NCBI GenBank assembly: GCA_039638495.1
Contig: JBDIWN010000001.1
Coordinates: 1,582 to 65,581 of the forward strand
Source of the DNA: Candidatus Profundicultor thermophilus
GTDB taxonomy: Bacteria > Atribacterota > Atribacteria > Atribacterales > Caldatribacteriaceae
DNA length: 64,000 nucleotides
Reading direction: 5' to 3'
Shown here: piece by piece, positions 54,396-64,000 of the stretch
Numbering within the stretch: position 1 is the stretch's first letter
How the letters are laid out: each line of letters starts with the position of its first letter
The notes under the pieces: model-generated
Databases searched by the model: none
The model's input: the letters and a program-made list of their open reading frames with translations, nothing else
Told to the model about the DNA's origin: nothing
Translations under genes and position numbers: made by a program

Positions 54396-54590
54396 ATGTT
54401 CTCTATTGATGATTTGGTGCGCAAGGTTGGTAATTCTTACGTCGCAGCTCTTGTGATTGCCAAAAGAGCAAGACAGCTTAATGAAGGAGCGATACCTCTT
54501 ATTGAACTTAAGGAACCTCATAAGCCACTGTTTATTGCGCTGGCGGAACTGATGGCCGATAGATTCTCCTTTGATTTTGTCGAAGAATGA
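54396..54590 (+). CDS. rpoZ: DNA-directed RNA polymerase subunit omega
   Basis: Start ATG 54396 after GGGGGA. 64 aa with NSYVAALVIAKRARQL. Position gmk-rpoZ-coaBC. Confidence 0.85.
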   Translation: MFSIDDLVRKVGNSYVAALVIAKRARQLNEGAIPLIELKEPHKPLFIALAELMADRFSFDFVEE

Positions 54591-55798
54591 TTGTGTACCA
54601 TCCTCCGTACTTCTTTAAAGGGAAAAAAATCGCTCTGGGCGTAACGGGGAGTATTGCGGCGTTTAAGGCGGTTGGTTTGGCCAGTTATTTAACGAAAGCT
54701 CAAGCTCAGGTAACGGTGTGTATGACTGAACATGCTCGGCAGCTTGTTGGAGAAAGCACCTTTGAAGCCATTACCGGGAATCATGTCTATAGTGACCTCT
54801 TTGCTCGGGGAGGAAGTATCGTCCATATCGCCTTGGCTCGGGAGAGCGATGTCATCCTCATCGTTCCTGCCACCGCCAATATCATTGGTAAAATTGCCGC
54901 AGGAATTGCTGATGACCTTCTCAGCACCCTTACCTTAGTTGAGCCTCAGAAAGTCATCGTTGCTCCAGCGATGAATGTGAGTATGTGGAAAAACCCTCTG
55001 GTCCAGGAAAACCTGGATACGCTCCGTAGACGAGGAATCCGGGTTATCTTCCCGGTTTCTGGACTTTTAGCCTGCGGAGAAGAAGGAGAAGGGAGATTGC
55101 CCGAGCTTGAGGAGCTGGTGGAAGAAATTTTTTATTATCTCCATGTGCCCCGAAAACTCGAAGGAAAGAAGGTTCTGGTTACGGGTGGCGCAACTCGAGA
55201 GTGGATTGATCCGGTGCGGTTCATTTCCAATCCCAGCAGTGGTTTCATGGGGTGTGCTCTGGCGGCAGTGGCAAAAGCCTGGGGGGCAGAGGTCAGAATG
55301 ATTCTAGGTGTTTCTTCGGTCCGTGTGCCTTCTTCGGTGGCGGTGGAAAGGGTGGAAACTGTTTTAGAGATGAAAGAGGCGCTGGAACGGAATTTCCCTC
55401 TTTGTGATATCCTTTTCATGAGTGCAGCGGTATCGGATTTCTGTCCTTCTTCCTGGAGTGCAGCCAAGATAAAAAAAGAGCACAAGACGAATCTTACTCT
55501 TTCGCTTCTGCCTGCTCCGGACCTTCTTGAAGGCCTCGCTCAAAAGAAGAAAAACCAAATTGTGGTTGGATTCTGCGCAGAAACCGAAAATCTTCTTTCA
55601 GAGGCAAAAAGGAAACTCGGGAAAAAGAATCTGGATATGATGGTGGCGAATCTGGTTGAAAAGGGGAAGAGTGGTTTTGAAGTACCCACCAACAAGGCCT
55701 GGATTGTAGAGCGGAATGGTCAGGAAATCGAGTTGCCTCTTCTGGATAAAAGAGAACTTGCCGAAGCGATTGTCACCCGTCTTGTTTCTCTTTTGTGA
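54587..55798 (+). CDS. coaBC: Bifunctional phosphopantothenoylcysteine decarboxylase / phosphopantothenate--cysteine ligase
   Basis: ATGA overlap. Flavoprotein half (GVTGSIAAFKA, PATANIIGKIA, PAMN) and CoaB half (VTGGATREWIDPVRFISNPSSGFMG). Confidence 0.9.
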   Translation: MIVYHPPYFFKGKKIALGVTGSIAAFKAVGLASYLTKAQAQVTVCMTEHARQLVGESTFEAITGNHVYSDLFARGGSIVHIALARESDVILIVPATANIIGKIAAGIADDLLSTLTLVEPQKVIVAPAMNVSMWKNPLVQENLDTLRRRGIRVIFPVSGLLACGEEGEGRLPELEELVEEIFYYLHVPRKLEGKKVLVTGGATREWIDPVRFISNPSSGFMGCALAAVAKAWGAEVRMILGVSSVRVPSSVAVERVETVLEMKEALERNFPLCDILFMSAAVSDFCPSSWSAAKIKKEHKTNLTLSLLPAPDLLEGLAQKKKNQIVVGFCAETENLLSEAKRKLGKKNLDMMVANLVEKGKSGFEVPTNKAWIVERNGQEIELPLLDKRELAEAIVTRLVSLL

Positions 55799-55807
55799 AT
55801 CGCAAGT

Positions 55808-57820
55808 ATGAAGGTTGTATCCCTCGCTTTACCGCTTCCCCTGTTTCGGGAGTTTTCCTATCTGGTTCCCCCTTCCTGGATTGATAGAGTGAAAGTCGGA
55901 AGTCTTGTGGAAGTTGAGTTCCACAAACGCCGTTTGATTGGTTTGGTGCATGCCTTCGAAGAGAAAGATACACATGAACTCAAACCGATTATCCGGGTTG
56001 TTCCCGTGTCACCTTGGATGGAGAAACGGATCGCCCTCGTTGAAAAGCTTGCTCAGATGTACTTTGCTCCTTTTGGGGAGGTGGCCAGTCTATTTTTTCC
56101 TCCTTTGTTGCGTTCTCTATGGCCACTTCTTGAAAGGCGGGCTTTTCTTGTCCGGGACCTGCCGGGATGGAATGGTTTCCCTCCCGGGGGCATGAACCTC
56201 TTTCTATTTCGTGAAACGTTCGGGTTGAGTGCATCCAGCTTACGGAAATTGTTCCGGGATGGTATTTTCCGGACCGAAGAAGAGGACTGGCAGCCCCGGG
56301 AGGTGATTTTTGGAGAGAGGGTTTTCCGCTTCTGGCGTATTGCTCTGAGAGAAGAGCGAATGGAATGGTTCAAGGGCTTAATTGCGAATGCATCAGGTGA
56401 GCGCAAGAAAGCACTCCTCATTTTTCCCGATTTTCAGAGTCTGGATACCTTTGAGGTGTTCCTGCGTAGCGAATTTCCAGAAAAACAGATTGTGAAATAC
56501 GATAGTCGTTTGAGTGCCACCCGCAGGATGGTGGTGTACCGGCTGGTTGAGGAGAGTCAGTATGAAATTATTCTGGGAACAAGATTGGCGCTTTTTTTGC
56601 CCATTCCCGATGTATACCTTTATGTCCTTTTTGATCCAGAAGCCCAAGGGCATTATTCAGAAAAGACTCCTCACTATCATGCGCTCCAGATTCTTTATGA
56701 GAACGTGCAGCAGAGAGGGGGAACATTGCATGTTGTGGGAGTGGTCCCCTCTCTGTGGATTTATCACCGGTTGTGTAGGGGTGAGTTTCAGGAAGGCGAT
56801 TTTGGGCATTCCCGTTTGGTGAGGACGAAAAAGGTCAAGACGATAGCGCTGGAAAAAAAGAGGCAACAACCCGCGATTGCTCCTTCGGTTCGGGAAAGCA
56901 TTGCTCGGGCTTTGGCACGGGGGGAAAAAGTCCTGGTTTGGGTGCAGAAAACAGGGTATGCTGCGGCTTTGGGCTGTCGGGATTGCGGATTTTATTATCT
57001 CTGTTCGGATTGCGAAGTGGCCCTGAGGTATCATCTGGATTTCAAGATTTTGTTTTGCCCTCTCTGTGGGAAAAAAGTGAAGCCGGACGATGTCTGTCCC
57101 AGGTGTAGGGGAACGTTCTGGGAAGGATGGGGAGAAGGTATAGAAAAGATATATGAGGAATTGCAGAAGTATTTTCCCAAAAATCGTTTGTTGCGAGTTG
57201 ACTCTGAGAGTCCTTGGAAGGAATCTCCCAAGGAGATACTGGAGTTTCCCGGTATTGTGGTTGGAACTTCGGGGATGCTGAAAGAAGACCTGTTGAGGGG
57301 AAGCGCTTTACTTGTCGTTCTTTCCTTTGAGGACTGGCTCTATCTCTCTGATTTCAATGCTCGAGATGAATTTTACGGTGAGCTGCATCGGGCTTTGTGG
57401 TTGATGGGAACCGATGCACAGAGTACTCCTCAGGTGCTCATTCAGGGTTCTTCAGAAGCTATTGCCAGAGTCGCGCGTTTTTTAAAACCTTGGAGGACTT
57501 TTTACGGGGAGAGTCTGCAAAAGAGAAAAGCACTGTGTTATCCTCCATTTTTTTGCCTGGTTCGGGTCATGGGTGAAAGCAGGAATAAGAATCGATGTAT
57601 TTTGGTTTTGAATTCGTTACGAAGTATAATGGAAGAGAATGGAGTAGGCGTGACTGGACCTTTTCCAGGGGCCGGTTTGCGGAGAAGGGGAAAGTGGACC
57701 GAGGAGTTGGATTTCAATTTTGAAGAGGAACGTTTGAAAGAGGTGTTTGAGCTTTTTTCGTGCTGGATGGTTTCTGTGGAAAGGGAAAGAATCCAATGGC
57801 GCTTTGAGGTGTACAGGTAG
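55808..57820 (+). CDS. priA: PriA-like primosomal protein with degenerate helicase motifs
   Basis: Colinear with PriA: N-terminal 3'-DNA-binding region (VEVEFHKRRLIGLV), YDSRLSATRR and ILGTRLALFLP segments, and a four-CxxC Cys-rich region (CRDC, CSDC, CPLC, CPRC). No GxGKT, DExH or QxxGRxGR motif is present. Confidence 0.75.
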   Translation: MKVVSLALPLPLFREFSYLVPPSWIDRVKVGSLVEVEFHKRRLIGLVHAFEEKDTHELKPIIRVVPVSPWMEKRIALVEKLAQMYFAPFGEVASLFFPPLLRSLWPLLERRAFLVRDLPGWNGFPPGGMNLFLFRETFGLSASSLRKLFRDGIFRTEEEDWQPREVIFGERVFRFWRIALREERMEWFKGLIANASGERKKALLIFPDFQSLDTFEVFLRSEFPEKQIVKYDSRLSATRRMVVYRLVEESQYEIILGTRLALFLPIPDVYLYVLFDPEAQGHYSEKTPHYHALQILYENVQQRGGTLHVVGVVPSLWIYHRLCRGEFQEGDFGHSRLVRTKKVKTIALEKKRQQPAIAPSVRESIARALARGEKVLVWVQKTGYAAALGCRDCGFYYLCSDCEVALRYHLDFKILFCPLCGKKVKPDDVCPRCRGTFWEGWGEGIEKIYEELQKYFPKNRLLRVDSESPWKESPKEILEFPGIVVGTSGMLKEDLLRGSALLVVLSFEDWLYLSDFNARDEFYGELHRALWLMGTDAQSTPQVLIQGSSEAIARVARFLKPWRTFYGESLQKRKALCYPPFFCLVRVMGESRNKNRCILVLNSLRSIMEENGVGVTGPFPGAGLRRRGKWTEELDFNFEEERLKEVFELFSCWMVSVERERIQWRFEVYR

Positions 57821-57837: not shown

Positions 57838-58341
57838 ATGATCCGAACAATTGAACGATACGGGAGTGAAATCCTGAGGCAGAAGGCGCAACGAGTGGAT
57901 CATGTGGATGGAGCGATTCGTGCCATTCTTCAGGATATGAAGGAAACAATGCATGCCTTTTCTGGAGTGGGGCTGGCCGGGAATCAGGTTAGAGTTCCGC
58001 TTCGCCTTATTACCTTCATTCATCCCGATACCAAAGAAGACCTAGTGCTGGTTAATCCAGAACTTCTATGGCAAAGCGAAGAGAGGGAGGTGGGTGAAGA
58101 AGGGTGCTTGAGTGTCCCTGAGATTTATGCCAAGGTAGAACGGAGCCGAAAAATAACGGTTCGAGGTCTCGATGAGCAAGGTAAAGAAATGGTTTTTGAA
58201 GCCGAGGGATTTTTGGCTCGTGTTCTGCAGCATGAAATCGACCATCTGGACGGGGTTCTTTTCGTGGACCACTTGAGTCCTTCACGGAGATTACTTTTGG
58301 GGAATAAGCTCAAAAAAATTGCCCGGGGTAATGGTGAATGA
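57838..58341 (+). CDS. def: Peptide deformylase
   Basis: Motifs GVGLAGNQV, EGCLSVP and QHEIDHLDG. Confidence 0.95.
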   Translation: MIRTIERYGSEILRQKAQRVDHVDGAIRAILQDMKETMHAFSGVGLAGNQVRVPLRLITFIHPDTKEDLVLVNPELLWQSEEREVGEEGCLSVPEIYAKVERSRKITVRGLDEQGKEMVFEAEGFLARVLQHEIDHLDGVLFVDHLSPSRRLLLGNKLKKIARGNGE

Positions 58342-58344
58342 TAT

Positions 58345-59280
58345 ATGAAGGTTGTTTTTATGGGTACCTCGCCCTTTGCAGTTTTGGTTCTTGAGGAGAT
58401 GCTCAAAAGTAATGACTTTACCATCCAGACAGTTGTTACGAAACCAGCCTGCCGGGCTGGAAGAGGGCAAAAAATTGTGCCTTCACCGGTCTGTGTCAAG
58501 GCGCAAGAACGAGGAATCCCGGTTATGGAACCCCCTCGAGTCAACGATCCGAACTCGCTTGAGGCTTTTCGAGTTCTTCTTCCGGATATTGTGGTGGTGG
58601 CAGCCTACGGGCAGATTTTAAAACGGGCAATTCTTTCTCTTCCCCATCTTGGCTGTGTGAATGTGCATGCATCACTTTTACCCCGTTATCGAGGTGCTGA
58701 CCCTATTCGATGGACTTTACTCAATGGAGATAAGGAGAGCGGGGTGAGCTTGATGCTTATGGATGAGGGGATTGATACTGGGCCTTTACTGGCTCAAAGA
58801 AGAGTCCAGATTGAAGAAGGTGACACGTATTCCTCTTTACTCCATAAACTGGGTATTTTGGGGGGGAAGATGGTTTGCGAAGTTCTTCCTCTTTGGGCGA
58901 AAGGGGCTATTACTCCCTTTTCACAGGAAGGCGAGGTTTCGTATGCCCCGATGATAACGAAAGAGATGGCCAAGATTTCGTGGGAAAAAGAAGCGCGGAT
59001 CATCGTGAACCAGATACGGGCATTTTCCCTCTCTCCGGGGGCTTATACCTTCTTTCAAGAAAGGCGAGTTAAAATTCTGGAGGGGTTCCTTGCCGGTCAG
59101 GAAGGGAACTCTTTGTCGCCTGGCACGATATTGGACATTGAGAAGAAAAAGGGGATTGTAGTTCAGGCAGGAAGGGGTACGGTCGGCATCCGTACCGTCC
59201 AGGTGGAGGGCCGAAAACCCATGTCTTTCTGGGATTTTTATTGTGGATATCGACTGAAAGTTGGAGATCAGTTTCAATGA
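58345..59280 (+). CDS. fmt: Methionyl-tRNA formyltransferase
   Basis: MKVVFMGTSPFAV, the HASLLPRYRGADPI motif, and a C-terminal beta-barrel domain. Confidence 0.95.
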   Translation: MKVVFMGTSPFAVLVLEEMLKSNDFTIQTVVTKPACRAGRGQKIVPSPVCVKAQERGIPVMEPPRVNDPNSLEAFRVLLPDIVVVAAYGQILKRAILSLPHLGCVNVHASLLPRYRGADPIRWTLLNGDKESGVSLMLMDEGIDTGPLLAQRRVQIEEGDTYSSLLHKLGILGGKMVCEVLPLWAKGAITPFSQEGEVSYAPMITKEMAKISWEKEARIIVNQIRAFSLSPGAYTFFQERRVKILEGFLAGQEGNSLSPGTILDIEKKKGIVVQAGRGTVGIRTVQVEGRKPMSFWDFYCGYRLKVGDQFQ

Positions 59281-63248: not shown

Positions 63249-63397
63249 TTTTCTCACCTTCTTGCGTATTTTGCGATAGCGATGAAAATATACCAGTTTT
63301 TCGGGTGAACTGCAAGCTTTTTATTTTTAATCTGTTGCAACACATTTTCTTGTCTGTCCTTCTGGTTATGGCTAAAATAGGGAGGGCTGGTAGAACT

Positions 63398-64000
63398 ATG
63401 GAAGTGGACCAGAATAATCTCGTTTTGAAAATTCTCAATCGGGAAAAGCAGAAATGTGATGATACCTCCGTCATCGGCGGTTTTTCCTCTTTCCTGAAAA
63501 ACTGGTTTACGCAGCAGGGGAGCGAAGAAGCCTTACAGTTTGTTCCGCTTCTTGAAGCATATCCTGCGCTGGGGATAGGCAAAAAAAGAGAACTTCTGGC
63601 CAAGATCGAGGATTTTCTGAATGGGAAAGTTATGGTGCCATCTCCGACCAAACTGGCTACCAAGAATTCGTTGCTTGACCTCCATCAGCCGGTGCGCTAC
63701 CTCAAAGGAGTCGGTCCAGCTTTAGAGAAAAAGTTCCACCGTCTCGGGATTCGGACTGTAGAGGACCTCCTTTGTTTTTTCCCTCGAGCTTACCGGGACC
63801 GAGGTGAAATGAAGCCCATTGCAAAATTGACCGGGAAGTCCATAGAGACTATTCAGGGAGTGGTGGTTGACCATAAGCGACAGCATACCCGGAGGGGAAT
63901 GCTTTTGAAGATTGTGGTACGGGACGACACCGGAGTGGTGACTCTGGTGTGTTTTAATCGGGATTACCTTGCTCAGGTTTTGCGTAAGGGGATACCAGTG
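63398..64000 (+). CDS. recG: ATP-dependent DNA helicase RecG, 3' end outside window
   Basis: Not in the ORF track because there is no stop in the window. My translation from ATG 63398 gives MEVDQNNLVLKIL...PVRYLKGVGPALEKKFHRLGIRTVEDLLCFFPRAYRDRG...VVRDDTGVVTLVCFN, the RecG N-terminal/wedge pattern. An in-frame ATG at 63368 is also possible. Confidence 0.8.
   Translation, partial: MEVDQNNLVLKILNREKQKCDDTSVIGGFSSFLKNWFTQQGSEEALQFVPLLEAYPALGIGKKRELLAKIEDFLNGKVMVPSPTKLATKNSLLDLHQPVRYLKGVGPALEKKFHRLGIRTVEDLLCFFPRAYRDRGEMKPIAKLTGKSIETIQGVVVDHKRQHTRRGMLLKIVVRDDTGVVTLVCFNRDYLAQVLRKGIPV

Follow-up and report, generated by a model that had tools for sequence, protein, structure and literature searches.

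A PriA orthologue of the pseudohelicase kind in the phylum Atribacterota

Introduction

The PriA protein of Deinococcus radiodurans has no ATPase or helicase activity, and binds single-stranded DNA (ssDNA), forks and DnaB (PMC4504706, Lopper, Boone & Morrow 2015). Escherichia coli PriA carrying K230R or K230A is devoid of ATPase, helicase and translocase activities; it still assembles primosomes and supports the PriA–PriB pathway in vivo and in vitro, and, together with PriB and DnaT, an ATPase-dead form of the E. coli protein loads DnaB (PMC5778457, PMC10175261). Here we describe a PriA orthologue of Candidatus Profundicultor thermophilus (phylum Atribacterota), whose gene lies in a 64,000-nucleotide (nt) stretch of contig JBDIWN010000001.1 (positions 1,582 to 65,581 of the forward strand; assembly GCA_039638495.1), referred to below as the window. 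A preliminary description of the window had predicted a PriA that recognizes forks and scaffolds a primosome without hydrolysing ATP. The sequence-level tests reported here favour this prediction, whereas such a protein is less unusual than was judged there, given the precedents in PMC4504706, PMC5778457 and PMC10175261. We class the product of this open reading frame (ORF) with the pseudohelicase PriA orthologues rather than with the helicases.

Results

The catalytic motifs

The priA ORF (window positions 55808..57820, + strand) runs from an ATG start through 670 codons to a stop, and encodes the sole PriA orthologue of the genome. Motif positions were taken from an alignment of the window protein and its relatives to E. 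coli K-12 PriA. In place of Walker A (motif I), GVTGSGKT in E. coli (residues 224–231), the window protein has RIALREER, within the remnant WRIALREER (56333..56359, +; residues 176–184), where R184 aligns opposite E. coli K230 and approximately 14 residues are deleted directly upstream. In place of Walker B (motif II), the E. coli segment IVIDEEHD is aligned to YVLFDPEA, and the DEEH box (residues 320–323) reads FDPE; the remnant VLFDPEAQ occupies residues 273–280 (56624..56647, +), and its D276 and P277 are invariant within the window's order. Motif III, GSATP in E. coli, is VGVVP. Motif V, GTQMLAKG in E. coli, is GTSGMLKE (residues 486–493), and motif VI, QVAGRAGR in E. coli, is RALWLMGT (HRALWLMGT, residues 527–535), from which the arginine finger is gone. 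No GK[ST] occurs anywhere in the 670 residues. Of the elements that mark an active helicase, i.e., a Walker A of the form GxxGxGK[ST], a DExH box and the motif VI arginine finger, the window protein has none: it is without a P-loop, without a DExH catalytic box and without an arginine finger.

The replacements at Walker B, motif V and motif VI, and the lack of any GK[TS], had all been pointed out in the preliminary description and agree with the alignment. The absence of Walker A had likewise been recognized, but its site had been placed at residues 191–208 (LIANASGERKKALLIFPD), approximately 12 residues too far downstream; that segment (LIANASGERKKALLIFPD) corresponds to E. coli residues 237–254, which cover the helix behind the P-loop, the strand following it and the beginning of motif Ia. 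A shifted but intact motif, which would have explained the pattern, was not found: in the profile and structure alignment the motif positions are filled by non-catalytic residues. RecG, Mfd and UvrB of the same genome retain intact GxGKT and DExx boxes, and the loss of motifs is therefore specific to PriA.

Domain organization and predicted structure

A Pfam scan of the 670-residue protein returned a single domain above threshold, PriA_3primeBD (PF17764; 60.2 bits against a cut-off of 22.7, residues 7–98); the PriA zinc ribbon and PriA_C gave only sub-threshold matches (14.7 bits for PriA_C), and DEAD, ResIII and Helicase_C domains were not found. When phmmer was run against PDB sequences, the PriAs of Klebsiella pneumoniae and of E. 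coli were matched along two colinear stretches, with E = 1e-37 to 1e-33. The 3′ DNA-binding domain (3′BD; 55808..56107, +; residues 1–100), the N-terminal DNA-binding region of the preliminary description, has F16, Y18 and K59 at the positions of E. coli F16, Y18 and K61. It is followed by a shortened winged helix with linker (56108..56311, +; residues 101–168), which is the least conserved part of the protein (entropy 1.59 bits) and bears a large deletion relative to canonical PriAs (alignment columns 140–300). RecA-like lobe 1 (56312..56842, +; residues 169–345) has lost its ATP motifs, and keeps the YDSRL segment and the motif Ib region GTRLALFLP in alignment with E. coli PriA.

The Cys-rich region (56963..57121, +; residues 386–438) shows the highest conservation in the protein, with an entropy of 0.98 bits and 21 invariant residues out of 53. 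All four CxxC pairs are intact, as had been reported from the sequence, and the eight cysteines involved (390, 393, 399, 402, 417, 420, 430 and 433) are invariant. The second part of RecA-like lobe 2 (57122..57487, +; residues 439–560) begins next to it, with a clade-specific W441-G442-x-G444 adjoining the position of the PriB docking site in E. coli PriA. The C-terminal domain (57488..57817, +; residues 561–670), which contains YPPF and a conserved R625, completes a full-length fold match to PriA. The architecture is that of PriA, with two RecA-like lobes, an insert of four CxxC pairs in lobe 2 and a C-terminal domain.

Structure prediction by AlphaFold2 from an alignment of 85 sequences gave a model with a predicted local distance difference test score (pLDDT) of 91.8 and a predicted template-modelling score (pTM) of 0.91. 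In a Foldseek search, the best PDB matches are all PriA, led by E. coli PriA on a replication fork (8fak_H; template-modelling (TM) scores 0.82/0.85), with the apo, ADP-bound and dsDNA-bound forms of PriA (6dgd, 6dcr and 4nl4) at 0.65–0.73; the next superfamily 2 (SF2) family, Mfd, does not exceed 0.40. We note that the model fits 8FAK, which has a pivoted Cys-rich region and forms an ssDNA pore, better than the apo structure 6DCR (0.70/0.73), which is of similar length and has the winged helix deleted. Around the motif I remnant, the strand of residues 171–177 passes through a 3-residue link into the helix of residues 181–196, and because the link is so short there is no space for an eight-residue phosphate-binding loop.

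This geometry bears on one rival explanation, a non-canonical ATPase or helicase in which R184 would stand in for the P-loop lysine, and D276 and E278 for the Walker B acids. The basic residue opposite K230, the conserved acidic residues of FDPE and the intact two-lobe fold are what such an enzyme could build upon. However, there is no glycine-rich loop and the link between strand and helix has 3 residues; the motif VI arginines, motif III and the Q and K-G of motif V are all lost; K230R alone kills the ATPase of E. coli PriA (PMC4504706, PMC5778457); and, unlike in an active site, the substitute residues vary among the classes of the phylum. We regard an unorthodox motor of this kind as very improbable.

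Orthology and gene neighbourhood

The protein scores 180.4 bits with TIGR00595, the NCBIfam PriA equivalog, i.e., below the cut-off of 230.35. Its orthology is established by single copy and ancestral neighbourhood. The source genome, a 2.08-Mb metagenome-assembled genome (MAG) that is 97.7% complete, contains one priA copy, and the PF17764 domain occurs once in it. A second priA with intact motifs was sought there with the TIGR00595 and PF17764 profiles and not found. The other weak TIGR00595 matches in the genome were rejected as second copies, being Mfd, RecG and UvrB with their motifs intact. Mfd is encoded on contig C6 and UvrB on C35 of the source genome; the start of recG lies at 63305–64000 of the window (+, running off its end; G000:C1:64781-66502), with GDVGSGKT and DEQH intact.

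The gene stands in a block of the order coaBC-priA-def-fmt, the position given by the preliminary description, and ORF, phmmer matches and synteny agree that it is a PriA homologue colinear with PriA. Upstream is coaBC (54587..55798, +), separated from priA by 10 nt; downstream, after a gap of 17 nt, are def (57838..58341, +) and fmt (58345..59280, +). Further out are yicC, gmk and rpoZ on the upstream side and rsmB on the downstream side. The coaBC-priA-def-fmt synteny is found in all seven families of Atribacterota described below, including those whose PriAs pass the TIGR00595 cut-off.

Loss of motifs across Atribacterota

We surveyed 86 Atribacterota species genomes with the TIGR00595 profile, divided into seven families (f1–f7), of which f1–f4 make up the window's order (32 genomes) and f6 and f7 are JS1-like. 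One PriA was found in 79 of the 86, none with stops. The window's order contributes 30 PriAs, all of which score below the cut-off (143–187 bits), whereas those of f5 (254–277 bits) and of f6 and f7 (329–481 bits) lie above it. The motifs are nevertheless lost in each of 18 PriAs sampled from all seven families and in 34 PriAs of f6 and f7, among them every one of a dedicated set of 30 from JS1-like classes (L007–L036). In f6 and f7 the P-loop position reads NFDERIEVY, NDFSSRMKIY, NHNLRDRFY and similar, the DEEH position reads DQEH, EREH, EQEN or EEEN, and the GRAGR position reads SSF[KR]E or LNL..; in f5 the P-loop position is LSFLEKVNFY and the Walker B site DEEG or DEEE. The loss of the motor motifs is phylum-wide and graded: the JS1-like PriAs keep the length of the loop, and the window's order is the most eroded, with the loop deleted, DEEH changed to FDPE and GTQ to GTS.

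The closest proteins to the window PriA (P0001–P0019; 662–675 residues, 39–100% identity) belong to Atribacterota and Ca. Caldatribacteriaceae, and none has a DEAD or Helicase_C Pfam match; the matches that follow are ordinary PriAs with no more than 25% identity. The relatives include Ca. Caldatribacterium saccharofermentans, C. californiense and strain SIUC1, which has a closed genome of 1,967,957 bp. SIUC1 and GBS are cultured isolates (PMC13408713), and the motif loss is also seen in the closed genomes of cultured Caldatribacterium isolates. The same degeneration in relatives, for which the preliminary description had suggested a survey, is thus found across the phylum, and the assembly error that it had considered is ruled out by independent assemblies and closed isolate genomes that share the loss.

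In a FastTree tree of 102 PriAs, those of the window's order group in a single clade with support 100, the stem of which measures 1.65 substitutions per site; f5 and the JS1-like classes attach adjacently to this clade, while other degenerate PriAs (P0060 with P0065, and P0075) are located elsewhere in the tree. This topology agrees with a single basal loss in Atribacterota, other lineages having lost the motifs separately.

The names given to these proteins vary. Members of the window clade are annotated ‘hypothetical protein’ or ‘primosomal protein N' family DNA-binding protein’. The JS1-like PriAs pass TIGR00595 although they have neither a GK[ST] P-loop nor an arginine finger, and because the equivalog cut-off is passed these dead proteins receive the label ‘replication restart helicase’ in annotation pipelines.

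Purifying selection

The ratio of nonsynonymous to synonymous substitution rates (dN/dS) was calculated against Ca. Profundicultor aquiphilus, a species of the same genus with 79% identity, over 469 codons. It is 0.13 for priA (residues 202–670), with 0.13 in lobe 1 (residues 202–345), 0.21 in the first part of lobe 2 together with the Cys-rich region, 0.10 in the second part of lobe 2 and 0.11 in the C-terminal domain; the corresponding values are 0.067 for def, 0.105 for fmt and 0.144 for rsmB. Selection on priA is purifying and comparable to that on the adjoining housekeeping genes. Conservation of the dead lobes within the order is roughly on a par with that of the C-terminal domain and of the 3′BD, which has 21 invariant residues out of 100; across the order, the protein has more than 100 invariant residues.

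A decaying relic, or an artefact of sequencing or assembly, might have been suspected from the score under the TIGR00595 cut-off and from the name ‘hypothetical protein’ that NCBI gives to close relatives. Such an explanation is effectively refuted, and we give it next to no credence: the 670-codon frame is open in dozens of independent genomes, closed isolate genomes included, the dN/dS is 0.13, the invariant residues across the order number more than 100, and the structure model is confident. The motif loss is neither artefact nor decay, because it is phylum-wide, occurs in closed isolate genomes, affects a single-copy gene with low dN/dS and leaves Mfd, RecG and UvrB intact.

Proposed function

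We consider it probable that the window PriA acts as an ATP-independent sensor of forks and D-loops, which sequesters lagging-strand ssDNA and recruits DnaB with DciA, leaving the remodelling of duplexes to others. The protein would neither bind nor hydrolyse ATP and, as we infer from this, would neither translocate nor unwind. Abandoned forks and D-loops would be recognized via the 3′BD, the Cys-rich region and the C-terminal domain, together with those faces of the dead lobes that contact DNA. On this platform, DnaB could be returned to lagging-strand ssDNA together with DciA, and possibly with SSB or the tail-less SSB paralogue described below, and duplex remodelling would fall to other enzymes, e.g., the intact RecG. 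Judging from the model, such a motor-dead PriA may rest in a partner-receptive conformation.

Three points weigh against this proposal. Both the absence of ATPase activity and the retention of fork and DnaB binding are read from the sequence and the predicted structure. In most members an R or K stands opposite E. coli K230, with D/E in the Walker B remnant, as might be expected of a very unorthodox nucleotide site. Lastly, the identity of PriA to its JS1-like counterparts is 22–24%, against 36–50% for CoaBC, Def and Fmt, which would also fit a changed role.

The third point leads to a second rival, i.e., that the PriA fold and its DNA binding have been kept for a new role, as a structure-specific DNA-binding or nucleoid factor, with restart being handled otherwise. 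The pace at which PriA has diverged relative to its neighbours, and the stem of 1.65 substitutions per site below the clade, speak in its favour, as do the reduced winged-helix region and the clade-specific invariant residues in place of catalytic ones. On the other hand, every fork-recognition module and the ancestral gene position are retained, a second PriA or a DnaD-type restart protein was sought in the genome and not found, and a helicase-dead PriA is enough for E. coli, and probably for Deinococcus, to restart replication. A role outside restart appears improbable to us, and the fork sensor and DnaB recruiter described above remains the preferred assignment.

Helicase-loading partners and a tail-less SSB paralogue

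DnaB is encoded in the source genome, and so is DciA (G000:C16:19239-19589), which is present in all 43 good genomes of Atribacterota. A DnaC/DnaI loader was sought in the source genome with PF01695 and not found, the proteins matched by this profile being DnaA and a PhoH-like protein, which were rejected; no DnaD or DnaB_2 domain was found in the same genome. We note that DciA scores 22–44 bits in the window's order and f5, against 55–85 bits in the JS1-like classes. Fast divergence seems to have affected the whole set of helicase-loading proteins in the lineages with the most eroded PriA.

Proteins of the SSB (single-stranded DNA-binding protein) family were identified by phmmer with E. coli SSB. 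The source genome has a tail-bearing SSB with an acidic ...IPPF tip (C31:17136-17657) and a second SSB-family protein of 128 residues (PF00436, 90 bits; G000:C8:37243-37629) which has no acidic tip and whose gene, flanked by rpsF and rpsR, lies upstream of rplI and dnaB. A tail-less SSB of about 105–128 residues occupies the rpsF-rpsR slot in all f1–f5 genomes examined (30 loci), with the tail-bearing SSB at another locus, whereas in the JS1-like classes the only SSB bears the tail and rpsF directly abuts rpsR. The f1–f5 arrangement is that of rpsF-priB-rpsR-rplI in beta- and gamma-proteobacteria, where PriB is a tail-less SSB duplicate that makes the PriA motor dispensable. A bona fide PriB was rejected, as TIGR04418 gives 17–26 bits on both SSBs against a cut-off of 72.

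In E. coli PriA, the PriB-docking residues are S481, T482 and H483 (PMC10175261), and the Trp-rich WG.G motif of the f1–f5 PriAs sits where E. coli PriA has the residues flanking this site. The short SSB paralogue and the WG.G motif co-occur in f1–f5 and are both absent from the JS1-like classes. A tentative and rather unlikely elaboration of the fork-sensor proposal is that f1–f5 have convergently rebuilt a helicase-independent restart of the PriA–PriB type, in which the tail-less SSB would dock on W441-G442-x-G444 of a motor-less PriA in a pore-forming, fork-bound-like conformation, and DnaB would be handed over with DciA replacing DnaT and DnaC. The correlations behind it amount to one or two evolutionary events, to which the closer fit of the predicted structure to the PriB-receptive form 8FAK is added, and a plain alternative is that the tail-less protein is an SsbB-like second SSB. 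R697, considered as a residue of the SSB-tail pocket, did not map in E. coli numbering, and the argument based on it was dropped.

Motor-dead PriAs beyond the phylum

The clade profile was searched against 1.84 billion representative proteins. The clade itself appears as approximately 11 clusters at 411–1161 bits, followed by a gap down to 325 bits. Of the 149 best representatives, 73 (10 of the clade and 63 of other lineages) are without one or more of motifs I, II and VI, a proportion that is no estimate of frequency, the clade profile favouring motif-less proteins. The few motif-dead PriAs outside the clade that bear a name come from an Elusimicrobia MAG (CG1_02_37_114) and from Acidobacteriota MAGs. 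The motor-dead state of PriA seems to recur in uncultured phyla, which suggests that pseudohelicase PriAs are common in bacteria of the DciA type.

Discussion

Atribacterota would be the second whole phylum that runs on a motor-less PriA without a back-up copy. This suggests that the indispensable and ancestral job of PriA is the recognition of forks and the recruitment of the helicase, and that unwinding is non-essential. The phylum would offer a natural system for the study of PriA–DnaB–DciA reloading, free of a confounding second helicase. The prediction is open to direct test, since members of the phylum are in culture, namely Atribacter laminatus, Caldatribacterium saccharofermentans and C. 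inferamans (PMC7736352, PMC13408713). For annotation, the labels “hypothetical protein” and “helicase” are both misleading for these PriAs. As far as searched, the Atribacterota case is unpublished: the only literature naming both PriA and Atribacter was a methane-ecology study, and the papers on Atribacterota isolates do not mention PriA.

Compared with canonical PriA, the window protein shares with the E. coli and K. pneumoniae proteins the domain order, the fold (TM 0.82–0.85 to 8FAK), the eight-Cys zinc region in lobe 2 and a gene position adjoining def-fmt, as in many bacteria. Further likenesses to E. coli PriA are the equivalents of F16, Y18 and K61 in the 3′BD, the GTR.ALF.P of the motif Ib region and the C-terminal YPPF. 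It differs from canonical PriAs in the lack of motifs I, II, III, V and VI, in the short winged helix, in an identity of only 20–25% and in a score below the TIGR00595 cut-off; the PriB-docking S481, T482 and H483 of E. coli are replaced by the clade-specific, Trp-rich WG.G.

The E. coli mutants priA300 (K230R) and K230A are catalytically dead and yet serve as a platform for primosome assembly, showing that the mode of action proposed here is feasible (PMC5778457, PMC10175261). These are engineered point mutants that need PriB, DnaT and DnaC, whereas the state in Atribacterota is natural and ancient, in a DciA background without a recognizable PriB, DnaT or DnaC.

The closest likeness is to Deinococcus-Thermus, where PriA is also the sole orthologue, with Walker A and B non-conserved throughout the phylum and the PriA domain set kept; the window protein is, in the same way, a PriA orthologue with non-consensus Walker A and B across its lineage. 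The hosts agree in having DciA and not DnaC, the control search for DciA being positive in Deinococcus and Thermus. D. radiodurans PriA has been proposed to be an ATP-independent fork binder that recruits DnaB, as we propose here for the window PriA. The two differ in several respects. In Deinococcus-Thermus PriAs a P-loop-like motif is retained, its K changed to R (PMC4504706), whereas the window's order has deleted the loop and lost motifs III, V and VI; PF17764, clear in the window PriA, was negative for D. radiodurans in the control search; and the activities of D. radiodurans PriA were measured in vitro, whereas the window PriA is known here from its sequence and a model. From the different phyla and residue patterns, we infer that the loss in Atribacterota was probably independent of that in Deinococcus-Thermus. 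The PriA pseudohelicase is a known kind of protein, published only for Deinococcus-Thermus, and Atribacterota provide a further natural example of it.

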